64,000 nucleotides of DNA from Planctomycetota bacterium (lineage in GTDB: Bacteria; Planctomycetota; UBA1135; UBA2386): assembly GCA_965228735.1 (NCBI GenBank), contig OZ245838.1, forward strand, positions 3,680,001 through 3,744,000, given 5' to 3'. Shown one piece after another: positions 13,677 through 17,418 of the stretch (the stretch's first letter is position 1; the number at the start of each line of letters is the position of its first letter). Position numbers and translations under genes: made by a program. The notes beneath the pieces were generated by a model, which worked only from the letters and a program-made list of their open reading frames with translations, was not told where the DNA came from and did not search any database.

Positions 13677-14282
13677 ATGGAACTGCGCGACGCCTACGAC
13701 CAACTGACCACGATCCGCACGCAGCTCGCCGCGACCGAGCGGCTGCGCAGCCTGCGGGCCGTTCCCGTCGCCCTCTCCGGCGCGATGGCGATCGTCGCCG
13801 CGACGGTCCAGACCTTCGCGATCGAGAACGTCACCGAGCAGGCGACGCTGTACCTGACGCTCTGGGTCGGCACCGCGATCCTCTGCGGCTGCGCGGCCGC
13901 GATCGTCGTCGCGCGGCGGGCGCACCTCAGCGCGTCGATGCTCGACGTCGCCAACCTGCGCGCCGCGGCGCTGCAGTTCCTGCCGAGCCTGATCGCCGGC
14001 GCGGTCGTCACGACGTGGGTCGCGACGAAGATGCCGCAGCTGCTCTGGATCCTGCCCGGGCTGTGGCAGGTGCTGTTCGCGCTCGGCAACCTCGCGGCGC
14101 AGATGGTCCTGCCGCGCGCGGCCAAGTGGGTCGGCGCGCTCTACCTCTGCAGCGGCGCGTGGTGTCTGTGGCTCGGCGAAGCGGCGCTCGATCCGTGGGC
14201 GATGGGCCTGCCGTTCGCCGCGGGCCAGGTCGCGCTCGCGGGCATCCTCTGGTGGCACCACGAACGCGGAGAATGGCGATGA
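13677..14282 (+). CDS. Hypothetical multi-pass membrane protein
   Basis: About six hydrophobic segments; overlaps the downstream regulator. Confidence 0.75.
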   Translation: MELRDAYDQLTTIRTQLAATERLRSLRAVPVALSGAMAIVAATVQTFAIENVTEQATLYLTLWVGTAILCGCAAAIVVARRAHLSASMLDVANLRAAALQFLPSLIAGAVVTTWVATKMPQLLWILPGLWQVLFALGNLAAQMVLPRAAKWVGALYLCSGAWCLWLGEAALDPWAMGLPFAAGQVALAGILWWHHERGEWR

Positions 14283-14698
14283 CCGGCAAACGCAACGACG
14301 GCAGCAAGCCCGGCGCCGATACGGCCGACGAATCGGGGCGCTACGCCTACGACGGGCTCGATCGCGTGCTGCACGAGAAGGCGCGGCTCGGCATCGTGAC
14401 ATCCCTCGCGGCCCGCACCGAGGGCATCCTGTTCGGCGACCTCAAGGCGCTGTGCAACCTCACGGACGGCAACCTGTCGCGCCACCTCACGGTGCTGCAG
14501 GAAGCCGGCATCGTCGAGATCCAGAAGGGCTACCGCGGCCGGCGCCCGCAGACGCTGTGCCAGATCACCACTGATGGCCGCAAGCGTTACCTGCAGTACA
14601 TCGCGGTGCTCGAGTCGGTGCTCGGCGACGCGGCCGAAGCCGCACGCGCCACCGGCCGCGCGCGCCGCGACATGCCCGAAGGCTGGAGCCCGGCTTAG
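14279..14698 (+). CDS. Winged-helix transcriptional regulator (HTH_34-like)
   Basis: LDRVLHEKARLGIVTSL...FGDLK...LTDGNLSRHLTVLQEAG...T.DGRKRY. Start at ATG 14279 (or 14273). Confidence 0.88.
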   Translation: MTGKRNDGSKPGADTADESGRYAYDGLDRVLHEKARLGIVTSLAARTEGILFGDLKALCNLTDGNLSRHLTVLQEAGIVEIQKGYRGRRPQTLCQITTDGRKRYLQYIAVLESVLGDAAEAARATGRARRDMPEGWSPA

Positions 14699-14725: not shown

Positions 14726-15055
14726 CTACTGGACCAGCTTCACGGTCTCCTCGCCGGCTTCGTGCACCAGCTTGATCATCGCGTCCGGCTTGACCTTCGC
14801 CGGATCGTAGTGGATCGAGAACACGGCAGTGTCCTCATCGACATCGATCTTCGACACGCCGGGGATCTCCAGGGCACCGCGCACGGCGGTGACACAATGG
14901 CCTCAATAGGGCTTGCCGAGTTCCATCTTGACGATGGTGGTCGCTGCGTTGTTCGCCCCGGGCGCGTTGTCAGCCGGGGTGTTCACTTCCGCCTTCTCGG
15001 CGGTGCAGGCGACCAGGAACAGCGCCGAAGCGCACACGACGATCAGTCGGTTCAT
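14726..15055 (-). CDS. Heavy-metal-associated (HMA/CopZ-like) domain lipoprotein, probable selenoprotein (UxxC)
   Basis: Manual translation: MNRLIVVCASALFLVAC-TAEKAEVNTPADNAPGANNAATTIVKMELGKPY[TGA 14903-14905]GHCVTAVRGALEIPGVSKIDVDEDTAVFSIHYDPAKVKPDAMIKLVHEAGEETVKLVQ*. The TGA is codon 51, at the first Cys of the HMA CxxC. Confidence 0.85.
14875..14902 (-). promoter_or_regulatory. Candidate bacterial SECIS hairpin
   Basis: After the UGA: 11 nt, then CACCGC / loop CGUGC / GCGGUG. The loop starts 18 nt after UGA with G at loop position 2. Confidence 0.55.
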
Positions 15056-15153: not shown

Positions 15154-17418
15154 CTACCTCGGATCGCGGCAGTTCATCCCGGCGGGCAGCGCGCGCACCG
15201 TGCTGTGCAGCACCTGGAAGTGCGGCCGACCCTGGGCGTCGGGGCCGCGGAACACCAGCGTCGCGGCCGCGCCCGTCGGTAACACCCGCTGCAGCAGCTG
15301 CACGAGCGCGTCCGACTTGCGCACGGGCACGTCCTGGCCATTCTGCTGCAGGACGACCATCACGGCCCGGCCCGCGAAGCGCGCGACGTTGCCGGTCAGC
15401 TGGTCTTCGATCGCAGCCAGGTGCGCCGGGTCGGTGCCTGCGTCCACGCCGAGCAGAACGGTCGGCGGCACGCCCTGGTCGTTGCGACCGAGAACGCGGA
15501 GGCCGGGAGTCGCGCCGTTCGTGCCGGCGGCGACGATCGGGGGTGGCGCGGCGGCAGGCGCCGCTTCCGGGGCAGCCTCGGGTGCCGACAACGTCGGCGG
15601 CTCCGACTCAGGCTCCGGCTCCGGCAGCGCCTCGGGTTCGGGCAACTCTTCCGGCTCCGGCTCGGGCAACGGCTCGGGGTAGAGCGCGGCGCCGTCCGCG
15701 CCATCGACACTCTCGACCCCGTGCTCGATCAACGCGGCAAGCAGCTGCTGCGTGACGTCATCCGGGAGACCGTCGGTGGCGAGCGTGACCCGGGCACTCC
15801 CGGGCATCGAGCCCTGATCGAGCTCGCGCCCGATCGCCATCGCGCGCTGCTCCGCGTCGCGATCGGCGAGCGCGACCTCGATGCGCACGTCGTGATCGCC
15901 GCTGCGATGGAACGCGAGCAACGGCGGCAGCAGCACGTCGACCGGCCCGTGGTCCTCCATCTCGAGCCGCGACGGCCCGGCCTCGGCGACCTGATCGAGC
16001 ACCGCGCGCTGCAGCGTGCGCGACGGCATGCCGTCGCCCGCGATCACGATGCGCGCCGGCTGACCCGCGATCCGGTCGGCGAAGCGCGGCACGGCGCGTT
16101 CGACCGCCCGTACGAGCTCGGCCGGCTTGGCCGCGTCCGTGTCCACGGTCACGACGCTGCGACCGTCCGCGACGTCGAGCGTGACCGCCGGCGGCCAGAA
16201 CGGCTCCCGCTCCTCACCGCCGATCGTGCAGAACACGCGCTCGACGCCGAGCCCGTCGAACGCGCCCGCGAGACAACGCTCGGTGTCCTCGTCGACGACG
16301 AACAGCTGCGGCCAGTCGACGACGACGACCTTGCCGTAGAGCTCGGCCTCGAACGCGCGGCACTCTTGCGGGAAGAGCTCGAGCACCTCGGAATGATCGC
16401 GGCCGTGCGGCTGCACCCGCAGCTGCACCTCGCGCTTGCCCGCGGCGACGGCGAGGACGCCGGGCCACACGACCTTGGTGTTGCCGTCCGTCACGAACTC
16501 GATGTGCTCGGGCGCGAACTGCGACACGAGACGGACGAAATGGTCGGCAACGCCTGCGGCCGGCGCCGACGTCCAGGTCACGCGCACCGCCTTGCCGGCG
16601 ACGCCGAGCGCGTGCTCGGGCATCACGGTCTCCATCGCCTCACCGGTGATCGCGGGATCGGCCGCGGGGTCGATCGTGACCTGCACGACCTCGTCCCCGT
16701 CCACGACCTTGCAGCGATCGAGCAGCTCGCGGTCGAAGAGCACGCGCGCGCCGATCGCGACGCGCCGCGCGCCGGCCGCCTGCAGTTCGTCACCGATGTG
16801 GCTCCGCAGGTCCGAGTCCGGCTTCACGCCACCCTCGAACTCGAGCAGGAACTTCGCGCCATCGGCCTTGCCGCAGAGCTCCTGCAGCACGGGCGGCAAG
16901 AGCAGCGGCAGGTCATCGGCCTCGAAGCCGCTGCCGTCGATCGTCACGACGGTCTCGCCATCTTCGTCCCGGCTCGCCACCGCGAGCTCGGGCGCGGGAC
17001 CCTCGAGCAACCGCTCGGCGCCGAAGCCGCGCTTGATCGTCAGGTTCTGCGGCTTCGCCGCGCCGACGATGTCCTTCACGACGCTCTTCATCGCGGATCC
17101 GATGAGCGCCTCGCCCGCGAAGTCGACCGTCACGTCGCGGAACCGCAGCCGCGCGCCGAAGCGTTCGACCGCGCGCTGCAGCGGCCCCTCGACCGCGCCC
17201 TGCACGGCCTTCTTCTCCATCTCGGGCACGGTGACCGTCAGCGTGACGGCCGCGCCGAGGCCGTCGCCGCCTTCACACGCGATCTTGATCGGCCCGTCCT
17301 CGAGCGGTCCGTCGTCGCCGGCCGTGGGCTCGAGGGTCGGCATCTCGTCGTCGATGGCGGCACGCTTCGTGCTGCTCGGGCGCTTCCGCGGCAATCCGTG
17401 GCGGTGCTTGGAACTCAT
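15154..17418 (-). CDS. Hypothetical protein with ~6-7 tandem alpha/beta units and Pro/Glu-rich linker
   Basis: 754-aa ORF with coding-like composition. Units of ~85-90 aa often end in [VL][WLY]P; PEPEPE linker at ~15600-15680; no signal peptide. Confidence 0.75.
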   Translation of the reverse strand: MSSKHRHGLPRKRPSSTKRAAIDDEMPTLEPTAGDDGPLEDGPIKIACEGGDGLGAAVTLTVTVPEMEKKAVQGAVEGPLQRAVERFGARLRFRDVTVDFAGEALIGSAMKSVVKDIVGAAKPQNLTIKRGFGAERLLEGPAPELAVASRDEDGETVVTIDGSGFEADDLPLLLPPVLQELCGKADGAKFLLEFEGGVKPDSDLRSHIGDELQAAGARRVAIGARVLFDRELLDRCKVVDGDEVVQVTIDPAADPAITGEAMETVMPEHALGVAGKAVRVTWTSAPAAGVADHFVRLVSQFAPEHIEFVTDGNTKVVWPGVLAVAAGKREVQLRVQPHGRDHSEVLELFPQECRAFEAELYGKVVVVDWPQLFVVDEDTERCLAGAFDGLGVERVFCTIGGEEREPFWPPAVTLDVADGRSVVTVDTDAAKPAELVRAVERAVPRFADRIAGQPARIVIAGDGMPSRTLQRAVLDQVAEAGPSRLEMEDHGPVDVLLPPLLAFHRSGDHDVRIEVALADRDAEQRAMAIGRELDQGSMPGSARVTLATDGLPDDVTQQLLAALIEHGVESVDGADGAALYPEPLPEPEPEELPEPEALPEPEPESEPPTLSAPEAAPEAAPAAAPPPIVAAGTNGATPGLRVLGRNDQGVPPTVLLGVDAGTDPAHLAAIEDQLTGNVARFAGRAVMVVLQQNGQDVPVRKSDALVQLLQRVLPTGAAATLVFRGPDAQGRPHFQVLHSTVRALPAGMNCRDPR

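Follow-up and report, generated by a model that had tools for sequence, protein, structure and literature searches.

On the minus strand of the 64,000-nucleotide stretch analysed here (the window), positions 14726..15055 hold a gene of 109 codons, closed by TAG, which almost certainly encodes a selenoprotein in which the UGA at codon 51 would be read as selenocysteine (Sec). The hidden gene is a predicted lipoprotein composed of a signal, a linker and an HMA domain, and the role favoured for it, with a probability of roughly 0.6, is the extracytoplasmic binding and hand-off of Cu(I) or another soft metal.

Full-length relatives align across residues 1-108. The predicted signal peptide II (residues 1-16) and the lipobox Cys17 (LVA-C) occupy 15005..15055 (-); they were recognised by motif, without a dedicated predictor, from a charged n-region, a hydropathy peak (the h-region) and the lipobox Cys. 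Cys17 is invariant in 30 of 30 aligned members, a lipobox-like motif occurs in 55 of 56 distinct members, and LspA is encoded in the genome. Residues 18-38 (14942..15004, -) form a variable linker rich in Ala, Pro, Thr and Asn and predicted to be disordered: it has low pLDDT and no secondary structure in the model, and its length differs between aligned members. The HMA/ferredoxin-like domain, residues 39-107 (14735..14941, -), scores 34.8 bits against the Pfam model PF00403 (HMA), whose cut-off is 24.8. It contains the single in-frame TGA, codon 51 (14903..14905, read from 14905 to 14903 on the minus strand), in the context PY-TGA-GHC, i.e., at the first position of U51-G-H-C54; Cys54 (14894..14896, -), the second ligand of this UxxC motif, is present in 56 of 56 members. 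These observations bear out the initial annotation, which had described a minus-strand gene of 109 codons missing from the ORF track, with a lipobox (LVAC), a flexible linker, an HMA domain with TGA in place of the first Cys of CxxC, and a frame open to a TAG. The gene is indeed absent from the list of table-11 ORFs of at least 60 aa, and codon 109 is followed directly by the TAG. Near the gene, no sigma-70 promoter or terminator consensus was found; the -10-like hexamers that precede some orthologs are too weak to support a promoter, and the sole RNA run matching the stretch covers 0.07 of its words.

The family appears to be spread through one planctomycete lineage. The protein query matched 36 of 101 relatives, and the aligned position in the 36 hits (30 loci) is TGA in 33 and a Cys codon in 3. 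When TGA and Cys at codon 51 were tabulated, as the initial annotation had proposed, the 56 distinct members scoring at least 60 bits comprised 51 TGA, 5 Cys and no other residue, in a set that leaves out 4 hits lacking the four-residue motif according to the motif finder and 16 hits of lower score, most of which are generic HMA domains. With the profile, matches were obtained in 56 of 301 genomes of the class, where 81 of 90 matches have one in-frame TGA (the codon position being verified in fetched loci only), and in 22 of 401 genomes of the phylum, where matches outside the order were mostly weak Cys-type HMA domains. The pattern of a UGA plus hairpin was found at 42 loci in species genomes (38 Planctomycetota by title and 4 without taxon), among them the cultured isolate Engelhardtia mirabilis Pla133, and at 50 loci in metagenomes; 102 of 104 pattern matches are family members, and 97 have a lipobox-like motif. 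This pattern is strict, and other phyla may still carry the family. A plasmid search returned no match to the family, and a related-locus search from the single protein alone returned no relative.

The TGA is not an artefact of sequencing or assembly, an explanation that was rejected given that contigs from four of four runs compared (four studies) span the gene with 0 differing bases; this comparison used run assemblies, i.e., contigs and not raw reads, and three of them may be the source of this DNA. A coral metagenome is among the runs that share at least half of the stretch, while two macroalgal metagenomes share about 0.4. All four Sec genes that the initial annotation had listed for a search are present in the genome: selA, a SelB winged-helix match, selD, which carries an in-frame TGA of its own, and tRNA-Sec (selC), which scores 76.6 bits with a UCA anticodon, a call with which ARAGORN agrees. 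In the set of relatives, selA was detected in 98 of 101 genomes.

A hairpin, CACCGC-CGUGC-GCGGUG, begins 11 nt 3' of the UGA (14875..14891, -) and is a candidate bacterial SECIS with a 6-bp stem and the loop CGUGC, which starts 17 nt past the UGA; the 6-bp hairpin with a G in its loop had been noticed in the initial annotation at this same place. The bSECIS model outlined in PMC13188914 comprises a loop of 3-9 nt, a stem of 4-16 bp, a G at loop position 1-2, a spacing of 16-37 nt and an energy of at most -7.5 kcal/mol. The hairpin falls within these bounds as they are outlined there (5 nt, 6 bp, C-G-U, 17 nt and, for the isolated hairpin folded alone, -8.8 kcal/mol). Across 29 distinct sequences, 93.1% of 174 stem cells pair, against 18-55% for slid registers, and two-sided changes are seen at four of six stem pairs; the covariation score was reached by 0 of 500 shuffles, a test that relatedness can inflate. 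At least five of the six pairs persist in 45 of 51 TGA copies versus 0 of 5 Cys copies, and a full stem at the same register with a loop G accompanies 5 of 2257 ordinary TGA stops of this genome. At two stem positions, a synonymous third base (Gly, Arg) tracks a Thr/Ala change on the opposite arm, with A-T in 15 and G-C in 28 of 51 copies at one position and A-T in 32 and G-C in 14 of 51 at the other; the codons used there are rare in the genome (GGT is 12.6% of Gly and CGT 7.9% of Arg). RNAfold prefers another register when longer segments are folded (z +0.97 for 61 nt, z -0.97 for 40 nt) and beats no shuffle, hence a single sequence leaves the hairpin unproven, and RNAalifold picked a different 3-bp register. 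As judged from aligned sequences, it is covariation that establishes the hairpin.

That the UGA is instead a stop or encodes some other residue, the gene being a pseudogene, two small ORFs or a product of a variant code, is very improbable. The C-terminal 52-aa piece is stored in databases as a called protein, the single-sequence fold is unremarkable and Sec incorporation is here deduced from sequence, all of which would fit a true stop; yet this reading has to contend with a TGA that 51 of 56 diverged members share at this codon, Cys being the sole alternative in that set, and with pN < pS downstream of the hairpin in 17 of 17 close pairs (rough counts, related pairs), by which the sequence past the UGA is evidently under purifying selection. 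Moreover, more true stops in the genome are TGA than any other codon (2257 of 3505 long ORFs), so that a general reassignment of UGA is excluded; many genes of the family themselves end in TGA. Decoding as another residue is opposed by the identity of the UCA tRNA, which is the tRNA-Sec. Conserved TGA, selection and TGA stop usage thus led us to reject both the variant genetic code and the pseudogene. The initial annotation had allowed for a miscalled base and for a TGA unique to this genome with decayed sequence behind it; the assemblies keep the TGA, which recurs across relatives with constrained sequence after it. Its selenoprotein reading is thus supported by the conserved UGA, the covarying hairpin, the complete Sec machinery and the Cys orthologs, and it is the UGA together with the hairpin that makes this reading almost certain.

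In a quick tree (68 columns, many open forks), the 56 members form one group with an SH-aLRT of 95, and the five Cys rows lie in four places among Sec rows. The Cys copies of two genomes (G004 and G044) lie at the equivalent locus, in synteny with the window gene, and selB and selC are kept in four of four Cys-carrying genomes checked. Given this scatter, synteny and retention, Sec is probably ancestral in the family and replaceable by Cys, and the Cys forms look like repeated reversions. The replaceability argues for one chemistry that is also possible with sulfur. Tandem family pairs, with overlapping stop and start codons, occur in several relatives. Several variants were seen as well. At L106 (G023:C10), the family domain is fused to the end of a long exported segment rich in Lys, with no lipobox close by; protein P0002, a close homolog with S-E-A-C for U-x-x-C, shows that loss of the first ligand is possible; and two Sec-HMA lipoproteins have longer motifs, GMT-U-PSG-U-G with two Sec at L124 (G376) and GMT-U-GAG-C at L125 (G465).

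Annotation splits the Sec forms at the internal "stop", and databases keep them only as pieces of 52-56 aa. A word-based protein search yielded 14 proteins, including seven full-length Cys forms, one form with Ser at the first position, one MerT/P-like fusion and five fragments of 52-56 aa starting past the motif. Of this gene, the databases contain the C-terminal fragment and lack the full protein, as expected from the earlier statement that standard gene callers would miss it. A protein-representative search was dominated by multi-HMA ATPases, with few full-length Cys forms in the best 150. Against NCBIfam, the window protein lies under every model cut-off, and the best E-values among 30 members are similarly weak.

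The predicted model has a pLDDT of about 90-95 over residues 41-109, with strands at 40-45, 67-73 and 78-83 and helices at 52-61 and 90-99, i.e., a modelled ferredoxin-like fold with UxxC at the start of helix 1. The best Foldseek match is oxidised MerP (1osd; TM 0.84 by target, rmsd 1.7), and the top matches by fold or sequence are MerP, CCS, ATP7A/B, CopA and CopZ domains, all metal-binding HMA. The canonical CopZ/MerP site combines the methionine of GM[T/S/H]CxxC with a loop-5 aromatic residue, and neither was found here. Met two residues before the first ligand occurs in 0 of 56 members, and the loop-5 residue, Glu102 in the window protein (14750..14752, -), where ATP7B domains have the Phe of "GF", is Glu in 39 and Gln in 9 of the 56, Glu102 being at least 90% conserved in 30 aligned members. 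The middle residues of the motif are Gly-rich (G in 38 of 56 and 43 of 56). Given the missing Met and the replacement of the aromatic by Glu or Gln, the site, as read from these alignments, differs from the standard CopZ site. Loop 5 presumably lies beside the metal site; a literature search for the role of its residue returned no paper. Of the chaperone and the sensor proposed in the initial annotation, the sensor finds no support, given that no output domain is present.

At the window locus, there is no adjacent P-type ATPase or mer gene. The upstream gene (15154..17418, -) encodes a 754-aa protein of ~95-aa repeats without a hydrophobic segment, for which no credible Pfam, NCBIfam, PDB/structure or Atlas match was found; it is conserved in 9 of 38 loci at 41-69% identity, and its stop overlaps the HMA gene start in G004 and G044. 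On the other side, a convergent pair (13677-14698, +) encodes a 201-aa membrane protein without a family match and a winged-helix HTH_34 regulator. Among the 38 loci with wider flanks, classified with context markers taken from the proteins of the loci themselves, 9 are of this core type, 9 are of a copper type and 20 are neither. The core loci lie behind the large repeat protein, and 8 of the 9 also have the convergent winged-helix and membrane-protein genes. The copper loci have a Cu ATPase, a multicopper oxidase or a CusA-like gene within the fetched stretch; they fall in two related groups and, judging from their sequences, may represent only 2-3 recruitment events. The tested copper marker genes are missing from 29 of the 38 loci, including that of the window.

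Two paralogs of this genome count among the nine copper-resistance-cluster loci. The one at C1:604270 follows, at a distance of ~1.1 kb, an ATPase whose CPC, YN and MxxSS motifs we take to be of the Cu(I) type, and the one at C1:494019 comes immediately after the genes of a TRASH-like lipoprotein and a multicopper oxidase. Hence, the earlier remark that the gene stands alone, without P-type ATPase or mer genes, is right for the copy in the window and does not extend to its paralogs. Both paralogs lie in the region G000:C1 ~470000-640000, where the GC content is lower (61-67% versus 69%) and the gene content includes three Sec-HMA genes, three P1B ATPases, multicopper oxidases and RND pumps. 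In G013, which belongs to another genus, the 604270 copy is matched with the same score over the same span, and this points to a mobile metal-resistance island. A second hidden selenoprotein was noticed at G000:C1:583199-583822 (L093:9200-9823 +), flanked by an ArsR-family gene on one side and two RND pump genes on the other. It has a signal peptide and two near-identical HMA domains, each with GMT-U-GGC and hence with the canonical Met kept; it stands outside the lipoprotein family, and it too has an equal-score match in G013.

Under the favoured reading, established pathways would have SelB read the in-frame hairpin so that Sec is inserted at position 51, and the protein would be exported, lipidated at Cys17 and cut by LspA, with the 20-residue linker giving the domain reach over a membrane face. 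Sec51, exposed and acting as first ligand, would bind one metal ion with Cys54 as a selenolate-thiolate pair, and the metal would be passed by ligand exchange to multicopper oxidases, RND pumps or other proteins of the envelope. With Sec, the site would stay ionised and could be re-reduced quickly in an oxidising compartment. The core copy may serve housekeeping metal buffering, and the mobile paralogs may add capacity in copper-resistance islands. This metal role is favoured by the HMA fold matches together with the 9 of 38 loci that have copper genes, and it is weakened by the 29 of 38 without copper markers and by the non-standard site. The Se-S bond may dominate in the periplasm, which also counts against a metal reading.

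The same weaknesses lend some weight to a redox shuttle on an HMA scaffold, a possible but rather unlikely reading in which U51-x-x-C54 would run a selenol-thiol/selenenylsulfide cycle that reduces or protects envelope proteins, with the loop-5 Glu as general base and metal binding secondary. Sec occupies the N-terminal, attacking position known from Trx-like UxxC proteins, the middle residues are small and Gly-rich, the Met is lost and Glu/Gln is conserved; copper marker genes are missing at most loci, and the best fold match is to an oxidised MerP, a fold that can form the bridge. Moreover, PMC13188914 presents most of the UxxC selenoproteins in its catalogue as putative redox proteins. Nevertheless, the near-top sequence and fold matches are all metal-binding HMA domains, paralogs were recruited into copper clusters, and an unsystematic look at the gene lists noticed no Dsb-type or thioredoxin neighbour. 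It is also conceivable, if doubtful, that the rebuilt site is a redox-switched selenenylsulfide device, by which copper would be taken up or released according to the redox state of the envelope, or an UxxC oxidoreductase of non-thioredoxin fold. If this is true, the Sec and Cys orthologs at one locus, together with the cultured carrier, would directly test what selenium adds to a metal-chaperone site. Less probable still, the protein would trap Hg(II), Ag(I) or another selenophilic metal in the manner of MerP, or would serve as a small store of selenium. Foldseek ranks MerP first and 28 of 30 members weakly match the MerP model, but the window protein scores 30 against a cut-off of 92.55, no MerA was found above cut-off in this genome, no mer genes occur among 36 neighbours scanned, and the island neighbours are of the copper type. 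The Global Ocean Sampling (GOS) study (PMC2398784) lists a Sec-containing "MerP" with 2 sequences, which could speak for such a trap.

In comparison with the known proteins of PF00403 (CopZ, MerP, Atx1 and the N-terminal domains of CopA/ATP7), the window protein has the fold and ligand positions in common and differs by its Sec first ligand, lipoprotein signal and linker, by the lack of Met before the motif and by the Glu/Gln at loop 5. MerP (TIGR02052), the closest solved fold, is likewise an exported single HMA domain; it is a soluble Cys protein of mer operons, whereas the window protein is predicted to be lipid-anchored and to contain Sec, falls below the model's cut-off and has no MerA above cut-off in its genome. 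CopZ is cytoplasmic and lacks the signal peptide found here, and all CopZ models score the window protein below their cut-offs (35.4 against 91 for NF033795, 30.8 against 95 for NF033794, 26.4 against 62 for TIGR00003).

Among selenoprotein models, NF041115 ("putative mercuric reductase") also describes a stand-alone HMA-like selenoprotein and is the commonest model match (29 of 30 members). However, it is a 74-position model with UxxU, i.e., two Sec, to which the window protein scores 30.5 against 95 bits; the window protein has UxxC, with the invariant Cys as second ligand, and a predicted lipid anchor. Going by its description, the GOS "MerP" may also belong among the closest known proteins. 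The MerT/CopZ fusion selenoprotein NF045683, for which the window protein scores 23.1 against 375 bits, shares a Sec in an HMA-related metal motif, and the Sec P1B ATPase (TIGR01525) has the same UxxC motif; both are membrane transporters, whereas the window protein, of 109 aa, is a lone and presumably exported domain. A precedent for a copper-sequestering lipoprotein is CopL of Staphylococcus aureus, as presented in PMC11672702, and SaoC and SaoX are (seleno)lipoproteins according to bioRxiv 2022.07.06.499078. As far as those accounts go, extracytoplasmic metal binding has been either proposed or demonstrated for these three, and the architectures and motifs described for them differ from those of the window protein, so they are functional analogues only; the SaoC/SaoX NCBIfam models had no match from the window protein or from 30 members.

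The catalogue of 119 selenoprotein families in PMC13188914 has, in its accessible text, HMA-related entries for a UxxC P1B ATPase, the UxxU NF041115 and a MerT-type protein; that text describes no entry as a lipoprotein HMA, and the terms "lipoprotein", "HMA" and "Planctomyc" are absent from it. The comparison with printed work also took in PMC9312934, likewise in its accessible text. A literature search by title, with Haft and Tolstoy 2025, deep-Sep (2025) and supplements outside its scope, returned no paper on the family. Sec in an HMA site is already known in other architectures, and the putatively lipid-anchored single-domain UxxC family with its rebuilt site apparently matched no tested model or catalogue entry.

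These results point to a selenoprotein family that is apparently uncatalogued, occurs in a bacterial lineage about which little is known and is fragmented by automatic annotation; they also give a clear example of how an in-frame SECIS and the protein overlapping it can co-evolve. Most known selenoproteins are redox enzymes, and what Sec does in metal-binding proteins is, according to PMC13188914, unresolved. A domain of 70 residues with a well-studied fold, available in natural Sec and Cys forms and carried by a cultured species (Engelhardtia mirabilis Pla133), would be an easy system in which to study what selenium contributes to metal binding in an oxidising compartment.
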